A stretch of 64,000 bases of DNA from positions 32,618 to 96,617 of the IMG/VR virus record IMGVR_UViG_3300048854_000232; one strand, given 5' to 3'. The position numbers and the translations under genes are program-made. This DNA comes from a virus. Below, one piece after another: positions 4,563 to 35,278 of the stretch. Under the pieces are notes generated by a model. The model searched no databases. It saw nothing but the letters and a program-made list of their open reading frames with translations, and had not been told where the DNA came from. The stretch's first letter is position 1; the number at the start of each line of letters is the position of its first letter.

Positions 4563-5510
4563 ATGTTCGAACCGAAAACCTTCTGGGACCAGCGCTCGGC
4601 GCTGAACGAATCGTTGATCATGCACCTGCTGGACATCGTCGGTGCGGCTGATCCGGACATGCACAACCAGATCTCGGCACGCTGGATGGGTCAGCAATCG
4701 CAGCTGAAGAACTTCGAAGTGCGCCGTATCCTCGGTGCGCCGGGTGTGATCGATGGCACCACGGTCGCCGACGAGGACTGGATCAACGAGCTGCTCCAGC
4801 AGAACCTCGGTAAGGAGTACTTCTCCGGCGTTGACACCTTCGAAGCCCCAGCCGATGCGATCGGTCAGGACAGCGAAGCCTACGTCTCGTGGCTGGCCAA
4901 CCTGCCGGACTTCCACCAGAACCTCAGCGCCGATATCGCGCCGGGCTTCTACCGCGAGCAGGCCGGTGACTCGGTCGGTGTGCTGCTGGTCTTCGTGGCC
5001 AATGACATGCTCTACGCCATCGCGGCGGCAGCCTACCTCAACATCCAGCAGATCTCGCTCAAGCATCTGCCGGAAGTGTTCAGCTGGCGGAACGGTTACT
5101 TCCGCAGCGAGTTCTTCGACTACCGCAACGATCTGACCCGTGATGAGGTCGTCTACGCCCTGGGCCGCGCGCTCTACAGCGAAGGCTTCAACACCACGCT
5201 GGTCCACGGTCTCACGACCGAGGCCATGGTGAAGGCCGAACGCCAGCTGCTCGAACTGGACGTACCCACGGTCAAGCCGACGATCAAGGAAGCGGCGCTC
5301 GTGGTCGTTGAGCAGAAGCCCGAAGAACTCGACGGGACCAAGGCAGCCAACGACGATGTCGGTGAAGTCGATCTGCCCTGGGAAGCCGGTGAAGATGTCA
5401 CGCCAGCCGAAACGACCACGACGGCCCGGGGCATGAACGTGCCCTATGTCCACATCGACGATCCGGTCTTTACCGAGGTCACGAACGATAACCCGGAGCA
5501 GCCTGCTTAA
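4563..5510 (+). CDS. Hypothetical protein with acidic C-terminal tail
   Basis: 315 aa, AAGGAAG RBS, typical codon usage. Confidence 0.85.
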   Translation: MFEPKTFWDQRSALNESLIMHLLDIVGAADPDMHNQISARWMGQQSQLKNFEVRRILGAPGVIDGTTVADEDWINELLQQNLGKEYFSGVDTFEAPADAIGQDSEAYVSWLANLPDFHQNLSADIAPGFYREQAGDSVGVLLVFVANDMLYAIAAAAYLNIQQISLKHLPEVFSWRNGYFRSEFFDYRNDLTRDEVVYALGRALYSEGFNTTLVHGLTTEAMVKAERQLLELDVPTVKPTIKEAALVVVEQKPEELDGTKAANDDVGEVDLPWEAGEDVTPAETTTTARGMNVPYVHIDDPVFTEVTNDNPEQPA

Positions 5511-7067: not shown

Positions 7068-7460
7068 ATGATCCGGTACAAGGCATTGGAAGGTGTCCCT
7101 TTGTGCCAGCGTCACGTGGACCCGGTGAAGGTCCGCTACGCCATCCCTCGGAACAGTGAAGGACGTGTAGTGGACCTATCCGTGGCTAATCGTGTGGATG
7201 TGTACGCCTTGGAAACGCCAAGCTGGTGTCTACGAGGCAGTACCTGGCCGTCCCCTGGCCAGCGCTTAATCCTTCCCGTGTCCGATCAGGACTGGGATCA
7301 GCATGGACTGGTGCAGTACCACGGAGCGTTCGCGCTCATGCGGGACTTTGCCACCGCTGAACAGATCAAGGCGCAGGTCGAAGGGCGGATGACTCGATTA
7401 GTGCGCGGCTCCTGGTCCGTGTTCCACGGCGCAGGCGGTATACGTTTGAACCCCCTGTAG
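7068..7460 (+). CDS. Hypothetical protein
   Basis: 130 aa ORF directly after uvsX. Confidence 0.65.
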   Translation: MIRYKALEGVPLCQRHVDPVKVRYAIPRNSEGRVVDLSVANRVDVYALETPSWCLRGSTWPSPGQRLILPVSDQDWDQHGLVQYHGAFALMRDFATAEQIKAQVEGRMTRLVRGSWSVFHGAGGIRLNPL

Positions 7461-7504
7461 TGCCCTCATTGTGAGGGTACTACCCTTACCACGAGTGTGC
7501 CATC

Positions 7505-7825
7505 ATGAACAACCAGTGTATTCCGCGCGGGGTCGTCTCCCTGGCGATCTACAGCGCACTGGCCTCGCACGATCCCCAGGCCGCCCAGGCTTGGAACGAG
7601 CAGTACCAGGAACCTCAAGACCAGACCATCACCGGCCAGATCCAGTCCGCCAACCGTTTCTGGCGCTGCCTGTTGGGCCAGCTGCCGATCTCCACCGTTT
7701 CGGTCCGCGACTACCTCATCGACCAGATCGAGCTCCAAGACTGGCTACGCCTGTTCGCCACCCAAGTGCTCCCGGTGGCTCTGGCCTTCTCCGTCCCCCG
7801 TTCTGCTGCGTTATGCGCCGCATGA
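7505..7825 (+). CDS. Hypothetical protein
   Basis: 106 aa, phage codon bias, followed by hairpin CGTACCGAC-tcg-GTCGGTACG and T-rich run. Confidence 0.7.
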   Translation: MNNQCIPRGVVSLAIYSALASHDPQAAQAWNEQYQEPQDQTITGQIQSANRFWRCLLGQLPISTVSVRDYLIDQIELQDWLRLFATQVLPVALAFSVPRSAALCAA

Positions 7826-7915
7826 GCTTGATACGATGCCCGCGTACCGACTCGGTCGGTACGTCGGCTCGTTTTTGTGCGTTTTCATATGTAGACAAAC
7901 CGCACAGGACCTCCC

Positions 7916-8590
7916 ATGATCGGCAACCGTAAAGCGGCCGAGGCCGAAGCGTTGAAGTGGATCGGCATGTTGTTGCCGGGCAGCTCCAACGTGGACATTT
8001 ACAAGCAGCGCTTTGCTGCGATGTCGGATGAGGCCTTCGAGGCCTACATCCAGCAACTGGATTCGGACGAAGAGATCCTAAGTCTCATCGCCCCCAATCT
8101 GGACGACCTGAACCTGACGATCGAGAACAACCTGGCCGTGGCTGAGAAGCTGGGTCACACGTTCTTTGAGCGCTGCTGGTTGACCGATCCCAAAACCGGT
8201 GTGGAATACCTGACTCCGATCAAGTACCTCATCGTGGATCTGTCCCTACGCCGTCAGCAGCAGTTGCTACAGAAGAAGATCTCCATCCCGGACAACAACC
8301 GGCACGTGGATGAACTGACCGGTCAGCCCACCGGCGACAGTCAGGGCTCCAAGCTGTCCTTCCCCGAGACCCAGGTGCTCTATGCCCAGGGCTTGGACCG
8401 TGCGCTGGAGGAACTCCTGAAGTTCCGCGGCGGTGACACCAAGGCCTTCCAGGCGATGAACCGTTCGATCATTGACACCGGTGGCGTCAGCCTCGATGCG
8501 ATCAAGCGTGTGCGTACCAAGGTCAAGTCCACCGAAACCCTCAGCACGTTCTTGAGCTCTATGCATCTTTCGAATAATGTCGCCGATTAA
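7916..8590 (+). CDS. rpoB: Virion RNA polymerase beta subunit, C-terminal fragment (phiKZ gp149-like)
   Basis: GSKLSFPETQVLYAQGLDRALEELLKFRGGD resembles the RpoB C-terminal GQRFGEMEVWALEAYG..LQEMLTVKSDD block; 224 aa matches the split beta C-fragment. Confidence 0.85.
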   Translation: MIGNRKAAEAEALKWIGMLLPGSSNVDIYKQRFAAMSDEAFEAYIQQLDSDEEILSLIAPNLDDLNLTIENNLAVAEKLGHTFFERCWLTDPKTGVEYLTPIKYLIVDLSLRRQQQLLQKKISIPDNNRHVDELTGQPTGDSQGSKLSFPETQVLYAQGLDRALEELLKFRGGDTKAFQAMNRSIIDTGGVSLDAIKRVRTKVKSTETLSTFLSSMHLSNNVAD

Positions 8591-21516: not shown

Positions 21517-24500
21517 TTACGTTTGCGCGATACCACGTTTGACCGAGATGGGCGCCTGCGCCGCCTTTTCGACGAGCGGACGATTGCCTCGGGTCGGAGC
21601 GGGAATCGAAGCTGCCGCGACATCTGCACCGGACGAATCCGACGATGCCGTGTTGCCGTGAATCCCGCCGAGCAACGCAACCTGCTGCTGGGAGGCGTCG
21701 ACCAACTGACCGAGCAACTTCACCTGCTGACTCATGAGGTCAGAAATGGTGTTGAGCTGGGCGTTGTTATCGGCGCTGACCTGCTTGCTGCGTGCATCGG
21801 CTGCGGCACCTTGCTGGGCGACGGTCTGGCGTTGCGCCGCGACGTAGTCGTCCTGGTTGGAACTGGCCTTGACCACCGACGTGGTGGGGGCCGACAGGGC
21901 AAGCCCGGAGGACTTGTTCATATCCGGCGCCGGGTTGGAGGCGTAGGTGGCCGAGGTTGTTGCCTGATCGGACGCACCCTTCGCCGCCACACTGCCGGCA
22001 CCTGGACCTGTGGGCAGATCACTGAGTGGGTCACCGGTCTTAGCCGAAGCCGGGGCAGGCGTTGCACCTGCGCCACCGGTGGCTGCCGGAGCAGCCTTCT
22101 TCGCAGCAGCGAGTTCAGCCGAGGACATGCCTGCGTCAAACTTCGCATTGCCACGCACCTTCTTATCCAGCACCGCCATGAGCTCATCGCGCGTACGCGG
22201 CGAACCGTTGGAGCTGTAGAAGATGCTGCCGTTGTTACCTGCAGCGGCCGGGTTGATCTGGGCCGCAATCGCGTTACCGCCTGCGGTCAGCATCTGCACC
22301 GCACCACCTGCGCCCAAGAAGTGAGCAGCGTACAGTTCCGTGTCGGTCGGGTCTCGACCAATGCGGCGCTTCAGGTAGTCGCGGTTCTGCTTCAGGAACT
22401 CCGCACCCATCAGGGCGTTAGCACGTGGATCAAACGGAGAGGTGTTCGGATCGATCCCGTACTTCTGTCCGTACTTGGCCAGCATGCCCTGCCAGGTTTC
22501 GTTGGTGAATTGGAACAGTCCCTTGGCCGAACCCTTCGGCGGCTTCGCTGTCGGATTGAACCCGGATTCGATACTGGCAAAGGTCGCCATCATCCCCGGA
22601 TCCACGCCGGCCATCTTGGCCGCTGCCACGATCGTGGCCTTCATCGAGTCCCATCCTTTACTGCCCTGTGCCGGCAGGGGGATGTTGTTGATGTCGCCAC
22701 CGGTACCGTTACCCGGCTGCGGGATGATCTTACCAATCGGGCTACCATCGGAAGCCGTCCCGGAGACATCGTTCGCATCCGCGACAAGGTTCGTCGAGGC
22801 CTTGACCTGGTTCGGGCTGACCCGGAACGCGGCGGCGGAACTGGCGGCACCACCGGCAGACGCGGACGCACCGCCGGCCGAGGCCGAAGCCATGGGCTTG
22901 CCGTTCGCACCGTTGATCTTACCGTTGGCCGCATCCAACTTGGCCGTCTGCTCGTTGTAGGTCTGCTGCTTGATCGCGGTCTTCAGCGCAAGCAGGTTAG
23001 CCTCCACCGCCTTACTATCCGCATTCAGCGGCTGATCATCGAACGGCGAGACCGTCGCGGTCCAGACCGACACGGCAACGTCCTTGACCTTACCCGTCGT
23101 GGCGATGACCGCATTGGCCACATCCAGGAGCTGAGCACCGGTCAGGTAGTTTTCCGCATCACCCGGATCGACGTTCTTGTTCGCCTTCTTGACCGCCGAG
23201 GCAAACTGCAGCATGACCGGGACAAAGCGTTCGGAGAACCACTCGATCCAGCTGGCCCGCATCTTCGGATCCGAGGGCGAGATCCCGAAGGACCCTGCGT
23301 ACTTGGTGAAGAGCTCATCCGGCTTGTCGTCGAACGTGGCCAGTCCATTGGTGTCATAGGTCAGGGTCGGCAGCAGGTCGGCTTCCATACCGTACAGGGC
23401 TTTGACGCGATCGACCTGGAGGTTAACCAAGCCGTAGGTCTTCAGTCGAATGACCAGCAAGGAGGACAAGGTCGAGGACAGCATGACTGCCTTCGGACCG
23501 GCCGTACCCTTCGCCGTCAACCCACTGGCCGTCGAGGCCGCAGCCAAGGCTGCCGCTACGTGGCGAGACTTATCCGCTTCACCCAGGTTCACTTCCCCAG
23601 CCGCCTGACCCAGATCGGTCTTGGCCATGCCCGGGAGCTTCTTCGCACCTGCCACCGCCAGTGCACCGGCGGTCGCCGGCGTGATGCCGTCCTTACCCTT
23701 GGACTTGTCATCCTTCTTCGCTTCCGCGTCGAGGATGCCCTTGACTTCCTTGAAGGCATCGTTGACTGTGTCAGCCGTAGCCGTCAGCGGGTCGTCACCA
23801 AAGGGCGAGTCCATCAGGCCGTAGATGCTCGCATCCACCGCTTGCGCGGCAGCAATCATCTTCTGCTTGGTGGCTGCATCCAGCTTATCGTCCAGGTCCG
23901 CCAGATCGACCTTACCGGCCATGTTCTGCTTGGCCGCCATCCAGGTGATGAACACCGGCTTGAAGCGCTGGTTGAACCAACGCAGCAGGGCAATGTGGTT
24001 CTGCCCATCGCCTTCGTCCGAGTGCCCCCAATGGAACGGGTTGTACCAGGACGCATCGATGCCGAAGATCTTCGGCAGCTCCGCCGGGTCGAAGCCCTTC
24101 ATGTCGATCGAGCCGCCCGTGGGACCCACACTGACGTGATCCTTGAGCATGTCTTCCAGCTCGAGGACTTTCTTCATCGGCCACACGTTCTGGTTGATGT
24201 CGACACCGTACTGGGCCATACGCACTTTACGCAGTGGCTGGGACTTCTTGAGGTTGTAGTACTGGACACCCTTGTAGATACCGTAGCCTACCGCCGCAAC
24301 GGCTGCTGCCCCCAAGACCACCGGCGCAGAGATCACGCTACCGATAGCACCGGCCGCGGTGGCAATACCGCTACCCACCGCACCGGCAGCCGAGGCTACA
24401 CCACCGGCTGCCGTGGCGATACCGCCGCCGACTGCACTGAGCGCACCACCCATCTCGCCGACACCCAAGAGCGCTGCACCGCCGCGGACCAAACCACCAC

Positions 24501-27500
24501 CCGCACGCAGGATACCGCCGCCGGCTCGCGCCAGACCGCTAGCCCCGCGACCCACCAGAGCGCCGGCACGGCTGTTGGCCAGACGACCCACCAACTTACC
24601 GACGCGACTGCCACCCAGCTTGTTCCAGCCCTTGCCAAGCAGACGCCCCAACTTCGAACGGCTGAGCTTGCGTCCCGCGTTCTTCATCCAGGCCTTGGCG
24701 TTACGACCGAACGTACCACGGGCTGCGCGCTTGCCACCGGTTTCGATGTCAATGCTGTTGCCGTCTTCGTCTTTCTCTTCGTCGTCATCGTGCTTGCCGA
24801 ACTTGTTCTTCAGCCACGACCACAGACCACCCGAGGACGCTGCCGCTGCCGGCGTGGCGCCTGCGGGGTTACCCTTAGCACCCTTCTTGCGCTGCTGGTC
24901 CTGCCACGAGCCCGAGCGGATGTGCTCGGCCGCTGGGAGGCGTGCATCCAAGACCTGGAAGATCTTCTCCAGCAACGTGGTGGACTTGGTCGAATAGACC
25001 TCGAACACCTTTGGGTTGAAGATACCGCCCAGACGCTTGAAGATCCCCGTCACCGCATCCATGCCAAAGCCCAACACGGCACCGGTGGCACGCATCGAAC
25101 CGCGAAGCAGGCTACCGGCCAGGCCGATGGTCCCACCGACCGCGCCGAAGAGCTTACCAAGGATGGACTTGAACGGCTTACCGCGAACATCGCAGATACC
25201 CTTCTTAAGGTCCTCCATCGTCAGACGGATCACCTCATCCTTACCCTTGGTCAGTTCGACCACTTCACCGCGGATGTCTTTGGGACGGCGGATCTGTTTA
25301 CGGGAGCGACGGTCGTAGTAAGCACCCGCTTCCATCAGCGTGGCATAAAGCTTGGGCTCGTTCATCTCACCGACGACATAGACGTCGCGGGCCCGCTGGG
25401 CGTAGTCACGCAGTGCGCCGAGGCCCTTGCCAACCAGGCCCAAGGCCTTGAAGGGAAGCGAGACCATCGTGCCGTAGTAACTGCCGAACATCTTCAGGCC
25501 CTTCCAGGCCGAACCTAGCGCAAGCTTGACCAGATGGCCACCGCGCTTGTAGTAGACACCCTTCTCGTAGTCGGTCTGCGACAGGACCACGTTACCGTCC
25601 GCATCGACGACCGGACCCTTGATGTCACCGATCTTGCGAATCACCTTACCGGTGGCTTGGTCCTTGTAGGCCCCGTTCTTCATGCCCTTGGCATAGAGCG
25701 CGGGTTCGGACTCACCCTTGACCATGATGTCCGAGACGAAGTTGGTCAGCCCACGAGCCACCCCACCTGCCAGACGAGCACCACCGCCAATGACCGAACC
25801 GATGGCGCCGTAGGTCCCCTTGAAGTACGCACCGAGTCCTTTCAGACCCATGCGACCGGCACCCATGACGCCACCAGCGAGCTTACCACCCCAACGACCG
25901 AAGAGGCCAAAGCGGGTGAGCTTACCGGCATCGCCCGTCAGGCCTTCACCACCCGCCCCGGAGGCGGCAATGGCAATCAGCTGGTGCAAGGCTTCGAGCT
26001 GTTCCTTACTCTCCTCGGTCCGATGGGCATCGCCTTCGGCCACGAGCTTGAGCAGTTCCGAATACGCCCCACCACCGCCTTCGGCCGAGTACTTCGGCTC
26101 GGTCGGGGCAAAGCCACCCATGAGCTTGGAAGCCCCACCGGCGCCGGAGACCATCCGATCGTGATCGGCAATGACCTTCGCTGCTTCGGTAGCCGAGAGC
26201 ACGACCTTGCCGGCCTTGTCGACGACGCCTTCAGCAATCTGACTTAAGCTGGTAATCGCCTCACCCGTCTTGGCCGAAATGAACTCGCCCTTGTTGGAGA
26301 GGATCGCCCGTGCCTTGCCCAACGGACCCGCAGCTTTCGCCAGGAGGTCTTCACCGAACGAACGACTCGAGGTCGCGGCAGTGCTAGCGGCGTTCTTGAC
26401 AGTCTTGCCCAGGCCCGCCCAGTTGAAGCCACCCGGACGCATAGCGGGACCCGGACCCGAAGGACCTGCACCGCCCGGACTCGGTCCTGCGCTACCCGAA
26501 GGCATCGACGGATCGTGGCCAGCCATGATCTCCAACACCTTGTCGAAGTTCACGTGGTCGTTGGAGCCGTTACGGGTGATCAAGCCCAGCTCATCCAGGA
26601 GCTCGCGGTTACCGGTCTGCATGTAGGCCCGGATGATCTGCGTCGGGTCACCGACGTAGGACTGCATCGAGCGGAACGCATCGGAGGTGCGCTGGGTCTT
26701 CACCCAGTCGGTCTTGCCTCCCACCATGAAGTGGTTCTGGAAGTGCTTGCCCAGTTCTTTCTTGTGGGTATCGCTCAACTGGCTAACGTCGTCGCCGTGA
26801 ATGAACCGGTCCGGGTCGAACGCTTTACCTTGGGCGGTATCCGAGAGCAGCTGCTTCTGGAGCGCTTTACGCGTGCCGTCGGAAAGCTTGCCCTGAGGAT
26901 CGATCTGGGACATCACCTGCTTCAACCCGTAATGGGTCATGTCCAGGCTGGACTTGCTGAACAGGCGGTTCTTGGCATCGTTGGCCGCCGCCGACTTACT
27001 GGTGAACTCACCCTTGTCCATGTTGAACACGGTGGGCTTGATCGACGCATCACCAGTGCGCAGGATCTGCAGCTCGTTGTGAATCCGCGACAGGAAGCCA
27101 GGGATCACTTCGGTCAGACTGCGACGGGCCTGGTTATTGAACCCCACGGCCTCATCGGCGTTGTTGATCGGCGCCTCACCCACCTTGGTGTCTTGCGACA
27201 TGCGTGGGGTGACGTTCTTGAAGAAGCGCACGAACGAGCCGAGCTTGCCGTAATCACCACGGTCCGAGCGGGCCCACTTGTTGGCTTGCTCAGGCAAGGT
27301 GTCGAGCAGGTAAGCCAACCGCGCACCGAAGCTTTGCGCACCCGGCACCTTCTCAACCTTACCACGCGCCCAGCGTCCCGCCTTTCGACCCAGATGCGAG
27401 GCAGCGAAGTCACCAGCGAGATGGCCAGCCAGTTGGTGGCCACTCATGCCCATGTCGCCCATCATGCTGCCCATGTCCATGGCAGACTCCGCGCCCATCG

Positions 27501-28440
27501 CGCCCATGTGCACACCGGAGAGGGCGGCTTTCAGGGAGGTCTTGAGATTGGCCTGGAGCTTGGAGCCGAACTTACCCACGTAATCGACGATCGCCTGCTG
27601 GGAGCGGCCGTAGAGCTTGTCACGCAGGGTGCTGCCGTACTGCTCGGACTGCTTGACCTTGACCGCATCAGGCAGTGCCGTGTTCTTGACGATCGCATCC
27701 AACTGCGCGGCCATCTTGACCGACATGTCCGCACCTTGATTACGGATATCCCGCAAGGTGAAGAACGAGCGCATCTGGAACTCCAGCGACTTCTGCTGGT
27801 AGCGGGCGTTGACCTGGTCCTGGTAGGCGACCAGGCGATCGATACCGTGCCGCATAGCGGAAAAATGGAAAGCGGACTTACGTTCGCGCTTGTCCACGAT
27901 GTCCTGACGGATCATCTCGGCCGATTGGTTGGTGGCATGTTGCCGCGCACTCTCTTCCATCTGGACGCGGAAGATGCCGGCGAGCTCGGCACTGATTTGT
28001 CCTGCGTCGATCTCTCCCTGGGTCGGTGCACGATAGCCAGGCTTGTTCTTAGCGAACGCTTCCAGGCGCTTGATCGTGGAGTCCGGCAGGAAAGAACGGA
28101 CCTTCGGCGTGACCTTCTCCACCGCTTTTCGGGCGACAGGAAGCAGGGGCCGGAGATCTTGGGCGGCGCTATTGTATAGCTCCCGTACGCCCTGTACGGC
28201 GGAATCGGCGGCATTGATTGCCGTTCCGTATCCCTTCGGCATGGCGTCGGAAATCGCACGTTTGATGAAGCTCTTGCTCGTGACTTGTGCACGCGCGCCC
28301 TCGGCAAAACCGACGGCAATCTTCTCGATGGGCTTGCGGTCTTTCTTCTGGGCTTTACCCTCACCGGGCAGCTGGTACTCGTCGAAATTCAAATCGTCGA
28401 GATCCATCTTCCCCAGAGGGGTGATCTTTTTACTAGCCAT
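21517..28440 (-). CDS. Large tail-associated protein with C-terminal lytic transglycosylase (SLT) domain (phiKZ gp181-like)
   Basis: 2307 aa; SLT motifs ASIESGFNP, AKGLFQF and LYAAHFLG at ~22290-22640; hydrophobic Gly/Ala segment; divergent from the RNAP beta' gene. Confidence 0.9.
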   Translation of the reverse strand: MASKKITPLGKMDLDDLNFDEYQLPGEGKAQKKDRKPIEKIAVGFAEGARAQVTSKSFIKRAISDAMPKGYGTAINAADSAVQGVRELYNSAAQDLRPLLPVARKAVEKVTPKVRSFLPDSTIKRLEAFAKNKPGYRAPTQGEIDAGQISAELAGIFRVQMEESARQHATNQSAEMIRQDIVDKRERKSAFHFSAMRHGIDRLVAYQDQVNARYQQKSLEFQMRSFFTLRDIRNQGADMSVKMAAQLDAIVKNTALPDAVKVKQSEQYGSTLRDKLYGRSQQAIVDYVGKFGSKLQANLKTSLKAALSGVHMGAMGAESAMDMGSMMGDMGMSGHQLAGHLAGDFAASHLGRKAGRWARGKVEKVPGAQSFGARLAYLLDTLPEQANKWARSDRGDYGKLGSFVRFFKNVTPRMSQDTKVGEAPINNADEAVGFNNQARRSLTEVIPGFLSRIHNELQILRTGDASIKPTVFNMDKGEFTSKSAAANDAKNRLFSKSSLDMTHYGLKQVMSQIDPQGKLSDGTRKALQKQLLSDTAQGKAFDPDRFIHGDDVSQLSDTHKKELGKHFQNHFMVGGKTDWVKTQRTSDAFRSMQSYVGDPTQIIRAYMQTGNRELLDELGLITRNGSNDHVNFDKVLEIMAGHDPSMPSGSAGPSPGGAGPSGPGPAMRPGGFNWAGLGKTVKNAASTAATSSRSFGEDLLAKAAGPLGKARAILSNKGEFISAKTGEAITSLSQIAEGVVDKAGKVVLSATEAAKVIADHDRMVSGAGGASKLMGGFAPTEPKYSAEGGGGAYSELLKLVAEGDAHRTEESKEQLEALHQLIAIAASGAGGEGLTGDAGKLTRFGLFGRWGGKLAGGVMGAGRMGLKGLGAYFKGTYGAIGSVIGGGARLAGGVARGLTNFVSDIMVKGESEPALYAKGMKNGAYKDQATGKVIRKIGDIKGPVVDADGNVVLSQTDYEKGVYYKRGGHLVKLALGSAWKGLKMFGSYYGTMVSLPFKALGLVGKGLGALRDYAQRARDVYVVGEMNEPKLYATLMEAGAYYDRRSRKQIRRPKDIRGEVVELTKGKDEVIRLTMEDLKKGICDVRGKPFKSILGKLFGAVGGTIGLAGSLLRGSMRATGAVLGFGMDAVTGIFKRLGGIFNPKVFEVYSTKSTTLLEKIFQVLDARLPAAEHIRSGSWQDQQRKKGAKGNPAGATPAAAASSGGLWSWLKNKFGKHDDDEEKDEDGNSIDIETGGKRAARGTFGRNAKAWMKNAGRKLSRSKLGRLLGKGWNKLGGSRVGKLVGRLANSRAGALVGRGASGLARAGGGILRAGGGLVRGGAALLGVGEMGGALSAVGGGIATAAGGVASAAGAVGSGIATAAGAIGSVISAPVVLGAAAVAAVGYGIYKGVQYYNLKKSQPLRKVRMAQYGVDINQNVWPMKKVLELEDMLKDHVSVGPTGGSIDMKGFDPAELPKIFGIDASWYNPFHWGHSDEGDGQNHIALLRWFNQRFKPVFITWMAAKQNMAGKVDLADLDDKLDAATKQKMIAAAQAVDASIYGLMDSPFGDDPLTATADTVNDAFKEVKGILDAEAKKDDKSKGKDGITPATAGALAVAGAKKLPGMAKTDLGQAAGEVNLGEADKSRHVAAALAAASTASGLTAKGTAGPKAVMLSSTLSSLLVIRLKTYGLVNLQVDRVKALYGMEADLLPTLTYDTNGLATFDDKPDELFTKYAGSFGISPSDPKMRASWIEWFSERFVPVMLQFASAVKKANKNVDPGDAENYLTGAQLLDVANAVIATTGKVKDVAVSVWTATVSPFDDQPLNADSKAVEANLLALKTAIKQQTYNEQTAKLDAANGKINGANGKPMASASAGGASASAGGAASSAAAFRVSPNQVKASTNLVADANDVSGTASDGSPIGKIIPQPGNGTGGDINNIPLPAQGSKGWDSMKATIVAAAKMAGVDPGMMATFASIESGFNPTAKPPKGSAKGLFQFTNETWQGMLAKYGQKYGIDPNTSPFDPRANALMGAEFLKQNRDYLKRRIGRDPTDTELYAAHFLGAGGAVQMLTAGGNAIAAQINPAAAGNNGSIFYSSNGSPRTRDELMAVLDKKVRGNAKFDAGMSSAELAAAKKAAPAATGGAGATPAPASAKTGDPLSDLPTGPGAGSVAAKGASDQATTSATYASNPAPDMNKSSGLALSAPTTSVVKASSNQDDYVAAQRQTVAQQGAAADARSKQVSADNNAQLNTISDLMSQQVKLLGQLVDASQQQVALLGGIHGNTASSDSSGADVAAASIPAPTRGNRPLVEKAAQAPISVKRGIAQT

Positions 28441-28507
28441 AAAAGTCTCCAGGCCCTAGACGTATATGTAGCTTCGGTTCATAAGTTAAGGAGTGAGGAC
28501 CCTCCTC

Positions 28508-29963
28508 ATGAATACTGCCATGCTTCCCTTCAACGTCGAGATCATGAACATCGACCGTAATAAGGTTGCTCACCTGAAGCCGGTGACCAGCCTGGACTAT
28601 TACGAGAACGTCGGTGGCGACCTCCACGGGGACGGTTTGTTCTCGGTCGAGATCTTCGGCCGGGTCGGTGAGGAAAGCCGCGACAAGCGCTTCTCCTACA
28701 TCGATCTCAAGACCCAGATTTTCCACCCGGTCATCTACCAAGCGCTGTGCAAGCTGAAGGGTCTCTACCAAGGCATCCTGGCAGGCACGGCTTTCGCGAC
28801 CTGGGACCCGATCACCAAGGACTTCAAAGCCGCCGACGAATTGGTCGGAGAGACCGGCTATGCGTTCTTCATCTCTCACTGGAAAGAGATCGCCTTTGCT
28901 GGCAACAAGTCCGGCATCCGTGACGCTCGCATCCAGCTGGTCGAGAAGTACCGTGACCGTGCGTTGTGCGACAAGATCCTGGTCATGCCTGCGGGCTTGC
29001 GGGATATCGAAGTCGGCGACGACGGCCGGACGGTCGTGGGTGATATCAACACCTTCTACCGCAAGATCATCTCGATCAGCAAAACCATCACCACCACCGA
29101 ACACGGTGCGCAGTCCCGTACGCTGAACCTGCCGCGGCATTTGCTCCAGCAGACCTTCAACGAGATCTACGGCACGATCGAGACCATGCTCACGGGCAAG
29201 TACGGCTTCCTGCAGTCCAAGTGGGGTAGCCGGCGTATCTTCAACGGTACGCGAAACGTGATCACGGCGATGGATACCTCCACCGAAGTGCTGGGTGGCC
29301 GCAATGCCCCCAAGTATACAGACACGATCCTGGGCTTGTACCAGGCGATCAAGTCCCTCGGCGCGGTGTCGGTGCATCTGCTCAAGACCGGTTACCTGGC
29401 TCAGATCTTTGCCCCGGGCAACGGTTACGCCAATCTGGTGGACCCGACGACCTACAAGGGCGTGCAGGTCAAGCTTGCTTCGGATACCTTTGACCGTTAC
29501 ACGACGGTGGAAGGGCTGGAGAAAGTCATCTCCAGTTACGGCGAGACCACGCTGCGCGCAAAACCGGTAATGGCCGATGGCTATTACCTGGCGCTTATCT
29601 ATGCCGGTCCGGACCGCACCTTCAAGGTCTTCTCCTCGATCGATGAGTTGCCCGAAGGGTTCGATCGCAAATTCGTCCGTCCCATCAACCTGGTCGAACT
29701 GATCTACCTCTCCGGTTACCGGAAGTGGAATGATTACGTAGGCTTCGTCACCCGCTACCCGGTCACCGGTACGGGCAGCTGCTACCCCTCCACCTTGTAC
29801 GTCAAGACCACGATCGTGGGCGAGATGCGCAGGGAATTGGATGAGGAGTGGCGGGTCTCGGACGAAGATGCGGTCGCGCTGGAATTCCCCACCTACGAGA
29901 CGCTGGCCTATCTGGATTCCCAGGTGGTCTCCAGTGCACGTCTTAAAGGTTTGGGTGCTGACT
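28508..29963 (+). CDS. rpoC: Virion RNA polymerase beta' subunit (phiKZ gp180-like), exon 1
   Basis: RpoC-like GLFSVEIFG, ILVMPAGLRD, GRRIFNGTRNVIT and RYP motifs; ends ...ARLKGLGAD-T. Alternative GTG start at 28493. Confidence 0.9.
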
Positions 29964-30361
29964 TAACGCTTCACTAGGTCCTTGTGGGGGTAACCCTACT
30001 CGAAAAACTCTTCTAATTGCTGGAAACTCTCGTTTGAACATGGCGCGCGACAACGTAATCCGAAAGGGTCAGCGTGAGCGCATGAGAAGCCGTCATGTAG
30101 AGACAATCAGCAGCCAAGTCCCTAACGCTCGAACGTGTCGTCCTCCACGGGAAAGTTACGGGAAAGGTTCAACGACTAGGCGAAAGCCGTAGGGTCAAGT
30201 GACCCGAAATGGAGAGCATCCGTGAGCTGCTGGATAGCGCTGCGGATGAAGATATAGTCTGGCCATGCAGGGTGACCTGCAGCTGTTTGTGTTGCCTGCC
30301 CCTCCCTCCCCTCGGGCAGCACGAGCGCGCCGGTTCTAACGAAACCGGTGGAACACACGCG
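29964..30361 (+). ncRNA. Group I self-splicing intron (IA-type, 398 nt, no ORF) in the RNAP beta' DFDGD codons
   Basis: P AATTGCTGGAAA 30015-30026, Q AATCAGCAG 30105-30113, R GTTCAACGACTA 30167-30178, S AAGATATAGTC 30249-30259; exon GACU pairs with intron GGUC (U-G at splice site); terminal G30361; splicing restores GAC TTC GAC GGC GAT. Confidence 0.93.
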
Positions 30362-30528
30362 TCGACGGCGATACGAGTTCTTGGAACGCGATCGTCGGTG
30401 ATGAATCCTTACGAGAAGTCAAAGAGTTCCTGGACTCCAAGGCCGCTTACGTTGACCCGCGCGGTGGCTTACATGCCTCCGCTGATGTGGCAACGGTGGC
30501 CCTGGTCCTGCAGAACATGACCGGCTAA
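30362..30528 (+). CDS. rpoC: Virion RNA polymerase beta' subunit, exon 2 (not in the ORF track)
   Basis: After splicing reads (D)FDGDTSSWNAIVGDESLREVKEFLDSKAAYVDPRGGLHASADVATVALVLQNMTG-stop; spliced product ~540 aa. Confidence 0.9.
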
Positions 30529-30548
30529 CCGCACCACGAGGTTGACCC

Positions 30549-33500
30549 ATGATGATCCTTTACCCCCAGTACTACCGACAGCACGGCATTCGTCGTGCCG
30601 TGCAGTTGGTGGCCCCGACCTTGAGTCGGATGGAAACGCTGGACCTGCCCCAGGGCAGCATCCTGCACTTTGTCGCCCAAGACGAGTCGCAGTACGGCAT
30701 GCCCCAGGACGACTACCTCCTTCGCCATGTTTCGCGGATGATGTACGTCGACCATGTCAAGGAGCTGGGCGATAACAAAGGCAACCCGCGTCCGACGCGG
30801 CAGCCGCCCAACCAGATGATCCGGGACTACCAGCGGAAGTACCGCCGTACGCGTGCGCTGACCAACATCGATGCCCTGCTGCGCGATCCGCGCACGCTGG
30901 TGATCGAGAACTATGCGCTGCTGCCGCATCTCTTCCGTTACACGACCAGCTACTTCCGCAACTACTACAAGTGGTGGAACATCCAAGCCGCCATGTGGGC
31001 GCGGGTGGGCGAGCTGGACGTGAAGGCCGATCGTCAGCAGTACCTGGAATGCTACCTACCTACCATCCTTCCGTCGTTGGGCCAACTCCGCAAGGGCGAG
31101 GCCTACACCAACCGGTCGACCATTGCCGCGTTCGCACAGAACGAGTCGATGTTCATCCTGGAAGTGTGGAAGTGGCTGGGTGAGCACCGTGAGACCTCCG
31201 TGCTGGCCAAGGCGGGTCCTCGCAACCTGTCGAAGATGAACCTCATCTGGACCCAGTCCGATAAGTGGTTCATCATGAACCTGGGTCTGCTGGACCAGTG
31301 GCGTCGTCCCTCGGAGACCGAGCTCAAAGCCGGTGCTGATCCCAAGCACGGGATTGTCGATCCGCAGATGATGCAGAAGCGCTTCTTGCGTGCTCTGATG
31401 TTCCTCTTCGAATCGGGTACGGTCGCCGGTGGTGAAGCGAAGGCTGTGGCGGAGGCGACGATCGTTGCCCCGACCGCCGATGGCACGACCAAGGAGCCCA
31501 CGGGCGAGGTCAAGGCGGTCGACGTGCCGCTGAAGATCGCGATGCCGCATCCGGACGATCCGAACAAGACCAAGCTGATCACGATCAAGCCGGGCCTGAA
31601 CATCGATAACTTCCCGGACCATCCGGTGGAAGAGACCGCGGACAACATGCGGTTGATCGATGAGGCCATCACCAAGGACCTGGACGCCCTGGCTCATCTG
31701 CACCTGGATCAGGTCGAAGATGAGCTGACCGGTGAAGACGGTGAGCCGCCGGTGGACGTGCCCCAGGCGATGATCAACTATGTCGCTGAGCAGCGTACCC
31801 TGGAATCGGCCATCATGGCCAAGGCGGATGCCCTGGTCGATGACGGTCTGCTCTCGGGTGCGGAGTATCGCCGGTTGATGGCGGTCTCCTCGGCGTATAA
31901 GAAGATCCCCGATCCGTACGGCTCCGGTCAGACCCTGGAAGTCCAGGCGCAGATCGATGTGCAGAACCTGGTGATCTCCGATGCCCCGTCGATTCCCGAT
32001 AGCGTCAGCATCGTGGACAAGTCGATGCTGAAGACCAGCTTGGCACACTTTGACACCAAGTACGTCAACGAGGTCATGCCCAAGGACATCACCAACATGG
32101 TGCTGGGTATCCAGCACGGTGGCGTGGGTGTTACCGGTTACCAGATCGAACACATCGAAGACGCACTCAACAGTTACACCTCGCACACGGTCAACCTGGT
32201 GCCGGTCACGGGCAAGCCCTCGACCATCCGCTTCCGGTTGCCCAAGGTCGAGGACGACGGCACGTTCCGTGCCGGTGGCGTGCGCTACCGTCTGCGTAAG
32301 CAGCGCGGTGACATGCCCATTCGTAAGCTCTCCCCCGAGAAAGTGGCCCTGACCAGTTACTACGCGAAGATCTTCGTTTCCCGTAGCGATAAGCAGGTGC
32401 ACAACTACCCGGGTTGGCTGACCAACCAGATCGCTGCACGCGGTATGGATCCGACCAACGAGGACGTGGACCACCTGATGGTCTCGGACGTGTTCAAGCG
32501 GGAATACCGCACGCCACGTCTGTACTCGATCCTGGCCGCACGCTTCCGCTCCTTTGAGCTGCCCAAGTACGACATGCAGTTCTTCCTGGACTACGCCGCT
32601 CGTTATAAGCAGTTCGGCGAAGAGCGGGTCAAGGCAGCTGAGAAGTCGGGCATGACGGTGATCGGTCGTTCGGGCGGTTACAGTCGGTCGGGTGGTAAGG
32701 ATGCCTACAGCCTAATCCTGGTCGACCAGAACGATGTGCTTTACCAGACCAACTTCGACAACGACGAAGAGATCGCGGTGCGTGGGACCATGGAATCGCT
32801 GCTCGAGTTGGATCGCCGCAAGGCACCAGCTGAAGTGGCGGTACTGAAGGTCTTCAATAAGCTCGTCCCGGTCGGCATGTTCTTGGCCTACCAGATGGGT
32901 CTGTCGCGCCTGTTCGAAGTACTCGGTGTGAATCCCCGTCGCGTGCCCTCGGGTGAACGTGTCAACCTCTCCGATGACGAGTACGTCCTGAAGTTCCAGG
33001 ACGAGCAGTTGGTGTTCCCCAAGGAACATCGTCTGGCCGCTCTGATCCTGGCCGGTATCGGCACCTACGAGAACGCCACTAGCAACTACCCGGTACATCT
33101 GTTCGATCGCAAAGACATCTACCTCAACGTGCTGGATCAGGCGGGGGTGGGTGCCAGGTACTTGCGTGAAATGGATCTGATGGTCGAGATGTTTGTCGAT
33201 CCCATCACCCGCGAACTGCTGGAAGACATGCACGAGCCGCTGGACTTCATTGGTCTGGTCATCCGGGCCTGTGAGCTGCTGCAGACCGATTGGTCGCCCG
33301 ATGAAACCGACATGGCCTTCATGCGCATCAAGGGCTACGAGCGTATGGCCGGTGCGGTGTATTCCGAATTGGTGAACGCGGTCCGTGGTCATCGTGCCCG
33401 CAGCTCCTCGAACGCCTCGATCGAACTGTCGCCCTACGCCGTGTGGACTGCCGTTGCGCAGGACTCCTCGGTCAAGCTGGTCGAAGACTCCAACCCGGTG

Positions 33501-33782
33501 CACAACCTCAAAGAACGTGAAGAGCTCACCTACTCCGGTACCGGTGGTCGCTCGGCACGCTCGATGGTCAGCGCCACGCGTGTGTATCACCCCAACGACA
33601 TGGGCGTCATCTCGGAGGCCACCAAGGACTCCGCTGACGTGGCGATCACCACGTTCACCACGGCCGATCCGAACCTGAAGAACCTGCGCGGTGTCACCGG
33701 CCGGTACGAGAAGGGGAACCTGGGTCCGGCCTCGTTGCTGTCTACCTCGGCGCTCCTGGCCCCGGCAGCGACCCGTGATGAT
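30549..33782 (+). CDS. rpoB: Virion RNA polymerase beta subunit (phiKZ gp178-like), exon 1
   Basis: 1078 codons; RpoB-like GTGGRSARSM and YHPNDMGVISEAT; ends TRDD. Confidence 0.9.
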
Positions 33783-34150
33783 TAAAGAGTTAGAAGCAAC
33801 CGCTTTTAACTCTACGGTCCGCTTACATGGAAACGTGTAAGTGAACTCTCCTTAATTGCTGGGACCTCCTTAGAGCCTCACTACCACTGCGAGTCGAAAG
33901 ACAAAGCGACGGTTTGAAAAGTGTGAGGATTGGACAATCAGCAGCGAAGCCCTGTTAATCGGGGAACGTTCATCGACTAAGGCTTTATCAGCCGGTACCC
34001 GTCAAGCGATGGGGAAATGGGAGACACCCTTTAAGCACTCTGATCTAGACAGAAATTGCCAAGGGTGAAGATATAGTCAGCTCTGCATGGAAACATGCAG
34101 CTGCTCCGCAAGGAGCGGGGTAGGGTTTGCGGCCCTGCCTGAACATAAGG
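33783..34150 (+). ncRNA. Group I self-splicing intron (IA-type, 368 nt, no ORF) in RNAP beta
   Basis: P AATTGCTGGGA 33854-33864, Q AATCAGCAG 33936-33944, R GTTCATCGACTA 33968-33979, S AAGATATAGTC 34068-34078; 5' exon ends in U, intron ends in G; splicing gives in-frame DD|PKRVNFISIQ. Confidence 0.92.
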
Positions 34151-35278
34151 CCAAAACGTGTCAACTTCATCTCCATCCAGCAGTCGGCTGGTACCTTCGC
34201 TAAGGGCTACGTGCCCTCGCCGCTGCGTACCGGTTACGAGCAGATCCTGGCCCACCGTACCGATGACCTCTACGCCTACACGGCCAAGAAGCCCGGTAAG
34301 ATCACCCGCCTCACGGCGCAAGCGATCACGGTGACCCACGAGGACGGTTCGGTCAAGACGATCGAGCTGGGTCGTCGCTTTGGTGTGGCGGCAGGTACGA
34401 TTCTCCCCCATGCGGTGGAGACCCGACTCAAAGTCGGTGATGAGGTGAAGCTGGGTGATATCGTTGCCTACAACCGTAACTACTTCCAGATTGACCCGCT
34501 GAACCCCAAGCAGGTCGTGTGGAAGGCTGGTGTCTTGGTCAAGACTGCGATCATGGAATCGACCGATACATTGGAAGACTCCTCCGCTATCTCGGAAGAG
34601 GTGGCGGGCCTCATGGAAACGCAGATCACCAAGATCCGCGATGTCCAGGTGGCGTTCGATCAGTCCGTACGCAATCTGCTGCCGGTGGGAACCCCGGTGG
34701 AAGTCGAGAGTATTTTATGTACAATCGAAGATGCGGTCACGGCGCAGAGCAATCTGCTGGATAGCGACTCGCTGGATACCTTGCGATTGATCTCGGCCAA
34801 TACCCCTCGGGCGAAAGTCAAGGGCGTGATCGAGAAGATCGAGGTGTTCTACAACGGAGACATCGACGAGCTGTCGCCTTCGTTGCAGGAATTGGCACAA
34901 GCTTCCGACCGTGAACGTAAACGCACTGCCCGTGAACTGGGCAAGACCTACACCCCAGGCCGCGTGGATGACTCGCTGCGTGTGGATGGCAACCCGCTGC
35001 CGCCGGATAACCTGGTGGTGCGGATGTACATCACCAGCGATATGTCCGCTGGCGTGGGTGACAAGGGCGTGTTCGGCAACCAGCTGAAGACGATCCATGG
35101 TCGAGTGATGTCGGGCAAGAACGAGACCGAGTCTGGTCAGCCCATCGGTGCGATCTTCGGTTACCAGAGTATCTCCGACCGTATTGTGTATTCGCCGGAA
35201 ATCATCGGTACCACCAATACGCTTCTCAAGATCATTTCCAAACGCATGGTCGCCGCTTACTACGGGAAACTGAAATGA
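34151..35278 (+). CDS. rpoB: Virion RNA polymerase beta subunit, exon 2
   Basis: Contains EDSSAIS and VGDKGVFGNQLKT (RpoB GDK motif); spliced beta is 1453 aa. Confidence 0.9.
   Translation, partial: PKRVNFISIQQSAGTFAKGYVPSPLRTGYEQILAHRTDDLYAYTAKKPGKITRLTAQAITVTHEDGSVKTIELGRRFGVAAGTILPHAVETRLKVGDEVKLGDIVAYNRNYFQIDPLNPKQVVWKAGVLVKTAIMESTDTLEDSSAISEEVAGLMETQITKIRDVQVAFDQSVRNLLPVGTPVEVESILCTIEDAVTAQSNLLDSDSLDTLRLISANTPRAKVKGVIEKIEVFYNGDIDELSPSLQELAQASDRERKRTARELGKTYTPGRVDDSLRVDGNPLPPDNLVVRMYITSDMSAGVGDKGVFGNQLKTIHGRVMSGKNETESGQPIGAIFGYQSISDRIVYSPEIIGTTNTLLKIISKRMVAAYYGKLK

Follow-up and report, generated by a model that had tools for sequence, protein, structure and literature searches.

The 64,000-nucleotide (nt) stretch analysed here (the window) corresponds to genome positions 32618-96617 of a 294.6-kb virus in the IMG/VR collection (IMGVR_UViG_3300048854_000232), a record rated complete by CheckV. 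The source is a phiKZ-like (chimallivirus-type) jumbo phage, and its nearest sequenced relatives are the Xanthomonas phages RTH11 and LucasX, with ~51% identity in the β subunit of RNA polymerase (RNAP). Within the window, two group I introns split genes that encode the virion RNAP. Intron 1 (I1; 29964..30361, + strand, 398 nt) is inserted in phase 1 in the Phe codon of the GADFDGD motif of the β' N-terminal subunit, while intron 2 (I2; 33783..34150, + strand, 368 nt) is inserted in phase 0 directly after a conserved DD of β; we refer to these positions as site 1 and site 2. Both matched the Rfam model RF00028 over its full length at scores above its curated threshold of 50 bits (I1, 90.7 bits, E 6e-22, match at 29954-30282; I2, 89.8 bits, E 1e-21, match at 33797-34100), and the window yielded no Rfam match besides these two.

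Both introns lie where the first-pass annotation had placed them from the letters alone, and removal of each restores the reading frame. Excision of intron 1 joins exon 1, which terminates GGT GCT GAC T, to exon 2 as GAC T/TC GAC GGC GAT (the slash marks the junction), and the product, GADFDGD, confirms that this intron splits the catalytic DFDGD motif of β'. Excision of intron 2 yields CGT GAT GAT/CCA AAA CGT, or ..TRDD/PKRVNFISIQQ.., in agreement with the uninterrupted β of RTH11, ..DRDDPKRVNFIPIQ.. (also read as ..DRDDPKRVNFIPIQH..). When uninterrupted reference proteins (Xoo-sp14 for intron 1, RTH11 for intron 2) were used as tblastn queries, the alignments broke exactly at the junction residues. 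A U precedes each intron, and each terminates in G (at 30361 and 34150, respectively).

Folding of both 5' parts gave a P1 helix followed by a P2 hairpin. In intron 1, the predicted P1 pairs GACUUA (29960-29965) with UAGGUC (29975-29980) and places a U.G wobble at the splice site. The corresponding helix of intron 2, GAU/U (33780-33783) with GGUC (33816-33819), also has a U.G wobble but is short, and its assignment is provisional; its loop holds a strong 12-bp hairpin (33786-33813), with P2 at 33820-33843 and a fold z-score of -6.4. Translation into either intron would stop at once: an in-frame stop lies four codons into intron 1 (29975-29977), and the first codon of intron 2 is TAA. By inspection, intron 1 has GGCGAAAGCC and GGGTCAAGTGACCC ahead of GAAATGGAGAG, in which GGAGAG pairs with P3's CUCUUC. 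These are candidates for the two additional hairpins (P7.1/P7.2) that subgroup IA typically has between P7 (GACUA) and the 3' strand of P3, a feature that the family appears to share. Among 14 family members without an open reading frame (ORF), RNAalifold found compensatory changes in 30 of 45 consensus pairs (P2, P3, P4, P6, P8, and P9), and we therefore regard the family as a conserved ribozyme. By homology, reading frame, and predicted fold, introns 1 and 2 are genuine group I introns in identity, boundaries, and conserved structure.

Neither intron carries an endonuclease gene, as had been suggested. The longest ORFs in or overlapping the introns (52 and 103 aa) have no Pfam match, and tblastn with the intron ORFs of eight relatives found nothing within the introns of this phage. 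The profiles for HNH, HNH_3, GIY-YIG, and LAGLIDADG_1/3 had no match anywhere in the window, so the reported lack of such genes there also held.

The interrupted genes are arranged on the + strand. Exon 1 of the β' N-terminal gene (28493..29963; PHROG 2986, E 3e-183) ends in ..LKGLGAD plus the first base of the Phe codon. Its homologue, phiKZ gp180, is 40% identical to it across all 490 aa, and ..LGAD terminates both. Exon 2 (30362..30528; TC-DGDTSSWNAIVG.., 55 aa and a stop by translation; PHROG 2986 positions 486-538, E 1.8e-10) contains the Mg-binding aspartates of the subunit. Exon 1 of β (30549..33782; 1078 aa; PHROG 3148 positions 1-1050, E 0), a homologue of phiKZ gp178 and PhiPA3 gp211, has the C terminus ..ATRDD and is 51% identical to RTH11 β. 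Exon 2 of β (34151..35278; PKRVNFISIQQ.., 375 aa and a stop), the homologue of PhiPA3 gp209, aligns with PHROG 3148 positions 1051-1422 (E 8e-156), and the two β exons together cover this family end to end. Upstream, a divergent ORF of 2307 aa (21517..28440, - strand; from the ORF list) occupies the place of phiKZ gp181 and PhiPA3 gp213 (giant tail or lysin protein), and serves as a synteny marker by position alone.

The order of giant divergent ORF, β' N-terminal gene, and β gene is common to phiKZ (gp181/gp180/gp178), PhiPA3 (gp213/gp212/gp211-209), RTH11, LucasX, Xoo-sp14, and HPP-Temi. Given the position of the 2307-aa ORF and this synteny, we identify the locus as the virion RNAP cluster. 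Both gp178 and gp180 of phiKZ are virion proteins, and gp178 is a subunit of the virion RNAP (PMC11620839); the interrupted enzyme had therefore been correctly named as the virion RNAP, a naming with which the PHROG 2986 and 3148 matches, the phiKZ synteny, and the identity to gp180 all agree. In relatives, the short β' exon 2 is easily lost from view. In RTH11 (locus record L001, 2234-2443) and LucasX (L002, 2367-2519), the exon bearing DFDGD is annotated as a separate hypothetical protein, and in phiKZ (L007, 3806-3982) it is unannotated; the annotated gp180-type proteins consequently lack the catalytic aspartates. RTH11 (L001, 2460-3761) and LucasX (L002, 2538-3878) also have a gene of ~434-446 aa between β' and β, with no Pfam match. 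This gene is absent from the window, where β begins 20 nt past the stop of the β' N-terminal gene. We considered the 434-aa ORF as a candidate endonuclease and rejected it on both grounds, its lack of a Pfam match and its absence from the window.

We compared the introns within a family sample of 35, which included the three introns of this genome (the third, I3, lies outside the window and is described below) and the site-1 and site-2 introns of 48 IMG/VR loci recovered with a β exon-2 profile. The sample also drew on RTH11, LucasX, phiKZ (three introns), HPP-Temi (two), the phiKZ-like vB_PA32_GUMS, PhiPA3, and the N4-like YH6. Alignments were built with MAFFT E-INS-i and L-INS-i, and identities were taken over ~330 trimmed columns. 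The first-pass annotation had cited five sequence blocks shared by introns 1 and 2 as lying beyond the minimal core. All five are present, but they are elements of the core found throughout the family: allowing at most one mismatch, TAATTGCTGG occurs in 26 of 32 other members, GACAATCAGCAGC in 16 of 32, GAAATGG in 32 of 32, and GAAGATATAGTC in 28 of 32. Judged from these counts, the shared blocks are the conserved catalytic core, and most of them form part of the Rfam consensus.

Core identity between introns 1 and 2 is 53.5%, against a family median of 56%, which places the pair at the 30th-35th percentile of all pairs in the two alignment methods. Intron 2 ranks 23rd of 33 among the relatives of intron 1, and intron 1 ranks 27th of 33 among those of intron 2; blastn gave no alignment between them at E<=1e-3. 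Each has closer relatives elsewhere. Intron 2 is 73% identical to the site-2 intron of locus L024 (98th percentile) and 65% to that of HPP-Temi, while intron 1 is 63% identical to the phiKZ site-1 intron and 60% to I3 (74th-77th percentile), with which it shares three blastn high-scoring segment pairs (HSPs). The P5 extension follows the same division, with type A (CAACGT..GAAAG) in I1, I3, and the RTH11 group, and type B (CTGCGAG.GAAAG) in I2, L024, L029, HPP-Temi, YH6, and phiKZ gp55/56. In all three maximum-likelihood trees, I2 is set apart from I1 and I3 by a branch with bootstrap values of 92-98%, and in one tree I2 sits within a clade (95/86) with three other site-2 introns and the YH6 intron. 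Forcing I1 and I2 into one clade cost 32.5, 24.0, and 41.6 log-likelihood units (approximately unbiased [AU] test, p = 0.096, 0.145, and 0.003, the last from the largest set, of 35 introns).

On the strength of these comparisons, introns 1 and 2 are an average-to-distant pair in a large intron family; the case for their separateness is strong though not absolute, and rejection of a common clade depends on the alignment. We consider it probable that they are members of one circulating family that arrived separately and are now without an endonuclease gene. Several points weigh against this reading. Two of the three alignments do not formally reject the I1+I2 clade, the alignment comprises only ~330 columns, and deep in the intron tree many branches lack resolution. 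The collections searched held no close relative of intron 1 (best, 63-66%), and a pattern scan for the type A P5 extension, which returned at least 93 stretches, gave, among the matches listed, none closer to introns 1 and 3 than those already in the sample. In addition, the loci surveyed are at most 63% identical in β (IMG/VR, exon 2), and include no close sister genome that differs in the presence of an intron.

Occupancy of the two sites was surveyed in 54 related loci, and was patchy. Site 1 contained an insertion in 10 of the 54; at site 2, or no more than a few codons from it, 18 did, a figure that includes three duplicates. Both sites were occupied in at least four loci (L026, L063, L069, and this window) and probably also in L070. 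Even the nearest relatives differ from one another, L024 being interrupted at site 2 only, L025 at site 1 only, and L027 at neither. In relatives, insertions of 1.1-2.3 kb have HNH_3/I-HmuI-like ORFs placed before the ribozyme core. All site-1 introns found other than intron 1 are in phase 0; intron 1, in phase 1, lies one base further on because the Asp codon here is GAC, which shifts the required U. Introns in jumbo-phage RNAP genes, and the proposal that intron mobility split these genes, have already been published (PMC7598289; PMC12908238), and both sites are known or recurrent intron hot spots.

The survey also turned up other insertions in the vicinity. The virion RNAP genes of contig L026 have four Rfam group I introns within 8 kb (379-2672, 4604-5061, 7240-7558, and 7571-7982), and two introns of this contig, L026_s1 and L026_s2b, are well-supported sisters (100/98-99; 64% identity), a genuine within-genome pair. 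At L060 (8913-9213), an intron lies inside the C-terminal β exon, a further insertion point. Another is seen in L038 (6600-7994), where an insert of 1.4 kb that includes an HNH_3 ORF follows site 2 by a few codons and has no Rfam match.

We envisage the following course for introns 1 and 2. Each pre-mRNA would splice in the usual manner, with guanosine attacking after the U of the P1 U.G pair and the exons being joined after the terminal G; unspliced RNA would be expected to give β' without the DFDGD aspartates, or β without its last 375 residues. Both introns belong to the structurally conserved family that circulates among these phages, and pairing of the GUC guide with the Asp codon at the exon end fits a preference of that family for catalytic-aspartate motifs. 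Introns 1, 2, and 3 probably entered their sites separately, I1 and I2 from different sub-lineages, either through homing driven by an endonuclease, with a co-infecting relative as donor, or through an ectopic event. The HNH_3/I-HmuI-like endonucleases in the introns of relatives at these sites would drive such homing. Copies without an ORF may have lost the endonuclease gene by decay, as we infer, or may never have had one, the state being ancestral. Introns 1 and 2 would now be immobile passengers that perhaps shield their allele from such nucleases.

That last step can be taken further, to the proposal that ORF-less introns are kept by selection as shields, their splitting of the recognition sequence making the RNAP genes immune to the intron endonucleases of co-infecting phages. 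A precedent exists in PhiPA3: its endonuclease gp210 nicks phiKZ gp178 at the site, where no intron is present, and reduces the fitness of phiKZ, while the intron-bearing allele is protected (PMC11620839). Intron 2 lies exactly at the gp210 site, and introns bearing endonucleases are common at both sites in relatives. Any intron at site 2 would split a gp210-type target, so that protection from the nuclease is a plausible side benefit. Such protection, however, comes automatically with an intron at the site and does not require selection, and the proposal adds to separate arrival rather than excluding it. We therefore hold selection for shielding to be possible but on balance doubtful.

A different relationship within the genome concerns intron 3. 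This ORF-less group I intron of 421 nt (L006, 1511-1931; genome ~118841-119261; RF00028 match at 118831-119195, 74.7 bits) splits a second β' N-terminal gene of the non-virion type (PHROG 2987) at ..LKAPNAD/FDGDALNVL... It thus lies in the same catalytic motif as intron 1, with the register one base apart (phase 0 versus phase 1), and its predicted P1 pairs GGAU with GUCC. The site 3 flanks, GCGGAT/TTCGAT, are the same as those of phiKZ site 1, GCGGAT/TTCGAC. A blastn search of phage genomes with intron 3 gave short core matches only.

If the genome does contain a true pair, introns 1 and 3 are the better candidates: ectopic homing or reverse splicing may have carried one intron from one paralogous NADFDGD motif to the other, in the virion and non-virion β' genes, with long divergence afterwards. 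Two of three trees make them mutual nearest neighbours by tree path, and in the third they are sisters (76/35); a tree constrained to unite them equals the free tree (log-likelihood difference, +0.95; AU p = 0.55). Their common type A P5 extension, three HSPs, and 60% identity point the same way, as does the match between the site 3 and phiKZ site 1 flanks. The introns in the two β' genes of phiKZ, gp180/gp179 (L007) and gp55/gp56 (L018), offer a parallel: their 3' domains (~85 nt, starting at P9) are almost identical, against ~70% identity over the rest, a pattern that suggests recombination between introns in one genome. Against this, the tree support is weak, with a polytomy in one tree and 76/35 in another, the 60% identity is not above that between intron 1 and the phiKZ site-1 intron, the insertion points are a base apart, and the type A introns compared were those listed among at least 93 stretches. 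The data allow introns 1 and 3 to be an old pair within this genome but do not show it, and we think it rather unlikely that they are.

Across the family as a whole, introns do switch sites. On the intron tree, site labels need 13 changes, where the minimum is 2, and supported sister pairs occupy different sites (L045_s1/L070_s2; L068_s1 with L043_s2 or PhiPA3; L026_s1/L026_s2b). Members occur at at least six positions in four RNAP genes, as well as in the single-subunit RNAP gene of N4-like phages, and the non-virion β' introns of this phage, phiKZ, and LucasX fall at three positions within 12 nt. The alignment shows a conserved guide core, GUC, whose pairing partner is GAU or GAC-U. Passengers vary too, as the clade of intron 2 includes members with an HNH_3 ORF, with a GIY-YIG ORF, with a remnant-like ORF, and with none. 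Site changing aided by a short guide fits the family overall and contig L026; it does not link introns 1 and 2. A wider scenario would have this family, with its GUC guide at Asp codons, jump repeatedly between the catalytic-aspartate sites of polymerases (both multisubunit RNAPs of nucleus-forming jumbo phages and the single-subunit RNAP of N4-like phages), exchanging HNH_3 and GIY-YIG passengers, with ORF-less copies persisting through immunity to competitors' endonucleases and I1/I3 as an old copy pair. Taken together in all its parts, we judge this scenario unlikely.

The first-pass annotation had also raised the possibility that the introns are mobilised in trans by a free-standing endonuclease encoded elsewhere. 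The genome does encode candidates, all outside the window: an HNH_3 protein of 257 aa (L019, 1030-1803, - strand) between the genes for the large and small subunits of ribonucleotide reductase, an HNH_3 protein of 190 aa (L020, 1276-1848, + strand) directly after thymidylate synthase, and two GIY-YIG-like ORFs of 281 and 139 aa (L022, 1084-1929 and 661-1080, - strand) just downstream of an RNAP subunit gene (PHROG 2962). Neither the PF01844 (HNH) nor the LAGLIDADG profiles had a match in the whole genome. The suggestion holds to the extent that such genes exist. The candidates map to genome positions ~148-149 kb, 187 kb, and 223 kb, compared with 62.6 and 66.4 kb for introns 1 and 2, so that all are more than 50 kb away and no endonuclease gene adjoins the intron-bearing genes. 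Their identity to the endonucleases in relatives' introns at the RNAP sites does not exceed 28%, and their positions fit homing at their own neighbouring genes. To our knowledge, the endonuclease gene lies beside the intron-bearing gene in the published cases of trans cooperation, which we count as a further point against it here. The free-standing genes look like ordinary homing endonucleases at their own loci, and mobilisation of introns 1 and 2 by them seems improbable.

The proposed origin of introns 1 and 2 as twins, in which reverse splicing within the genome placed a copy of one at an exon end like the other's (GTGCTGACT versus GTGATGAT), fares worse. In its favour, both introns have the guide core GGUC and stand at Asp codons, site switching is frequent in the family, contig L026 shows that a site-1/site-2 pair can arise in one genome, and the clade survives two of three AU tests. 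The likeness of the exon ends, however, is largely that of two Asp codons and the preceding GTG/GCT, and we rejected it as a sign of a shared target, as it comes down to Asp codons and a guide of 3-4 nt in registers one base apart. With identity below the family median, low mutual ranks, different P5 extensions, the 92-98% split, no blastn alignment, and a p of 0.003 in the largest set, introns 1 and 2 belong to distant clades with only core-level similarity, the outcome that the first-pass annotation had itself named as refuting its reading. Moreover, intron 2 has same-site relatives at 65-73% identity in other phages. This origin is already largely refuted, and we regard it as very improbable.

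Least credible of all is the proposal that splicing of both introns forms a regulatory checkpoint on production of the packaged RNAP: both subunits do need splicing, and the stops at the intron starts prevent read-through products, but one or both introns are missing from most relatives, they are distributed as mobile elements are, nothing regulatory was found, and the third intron is in a non-virion RNAP, so that the introns are not specific to the packaged enzyme.

Separate arrival of introns 1 and 2 from a circulating family thus remains our preferred explanation, and the pair constitutes an ordinary new example of a known phenomenon, correctly observed. For annotation, it means that introns divide three RNAP genes of this phage, the two for the virion enzyme and one for a non-virion β', and that a small β' exon 2 with the Mg-binding aspartates is easily missed, as the separate or missing annotations in RTH11, LucasX, and phiKZ illustrate. 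More broadly, introns crowd into the RNAP genes of phiKZ-like phages, as many as four of them within 8 kb, and one ribozyme family fills many positions, with and without endonucleases. The survey provides background to the recent finding that introns act as weapons between co-infecting jumbo phages, and the ORF-less copies at the site that PhiPA3 gp210 attacks can naturally be seen as candidate resistant alleles.

The site-1 introns of RTH11 and LucasX resemble intron 1 in motif, ORF-less state, length (~400 nt), and type A P5; they are, however, in phase 0 and form their own tight clade (100/100), in which intron 1 is not included with support. Unlike this phage, RTH11 and LucasX have no intron in β. 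The phiKZ gp180-gp178 intron, which encodes gp179 (HNH_3), interrupts the same gene and DFDGD motif as intron 1, and its ribozyme, at 63%, is among the closest. It differs in its length of 1443 nt, its 357-aa endonuclease ORF, and its phase 0 position (GAT/TTC), whereas intron 1 is ORF-less and one base further on (GAC T/TC).

For intron 2, the closest counterparts are at the same site. The intron of the Pseudomonas phage HPP-Temi is likewise ORF-less (348 nt) and belongs to the same supported clade. Together with those of L024 and L029/L069, it has 65-73% core identity to intron 2, and blastn gave 79.5% over 174 nt, even though identity between the host β proteins is only 33-63%. In L024 and L029, unlike in intron 2, endonuclease ORFs precede the ribozyme core. 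The intron in the RNAP2 gene of YH6, a Pseudomonas Litunavirus, is in the clade of intron 2 as well (81% over 183 nt), but interrupts an unrelated, N4 gp16-like gene at motif A of a single-subunit RNAP (..LDACCSG/IQIMSAL..; L009, 2463-3459). Its guide is changed to GCCC, and a GIY-YIG-like ORF follows P9; this frame (..YAYLLTFADGMYYIGAR..) begins upstream of the annotated start of YH6_026.

The PhiPA3 gp210 intron is inserted right after two conserved aspartates of the virion RNAP β subunit, the second of which aligns with D1072 of phiKZ gp178 (Birkholz et al. 2024, PMC11620839). By tblastn, the second D before intron 2 also maps to codon 1072 of phiKZ gp178, and the junction in the PhiPA3 record, ..MNDD/..intron../MKRVGFISIQQ, corresponds to DD/PKRVNFISIQQ here. 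The two introns are alike in gene, exact insertion point, family, the preceding U, and the terminal G. The PhiPA3 intron, however, is 1352 nt long and encodes the nicking HNH endonuclease gp210, whereas intron 2 has 368 nt and is ORF-less. Their ribozymes share only 57% core identity (rank 21 of 34) and fall in different sub-lineages and clades. The same site is thus occupied by different ribozyme sub-lineages, and site 2 has therefore been invaded more than once.

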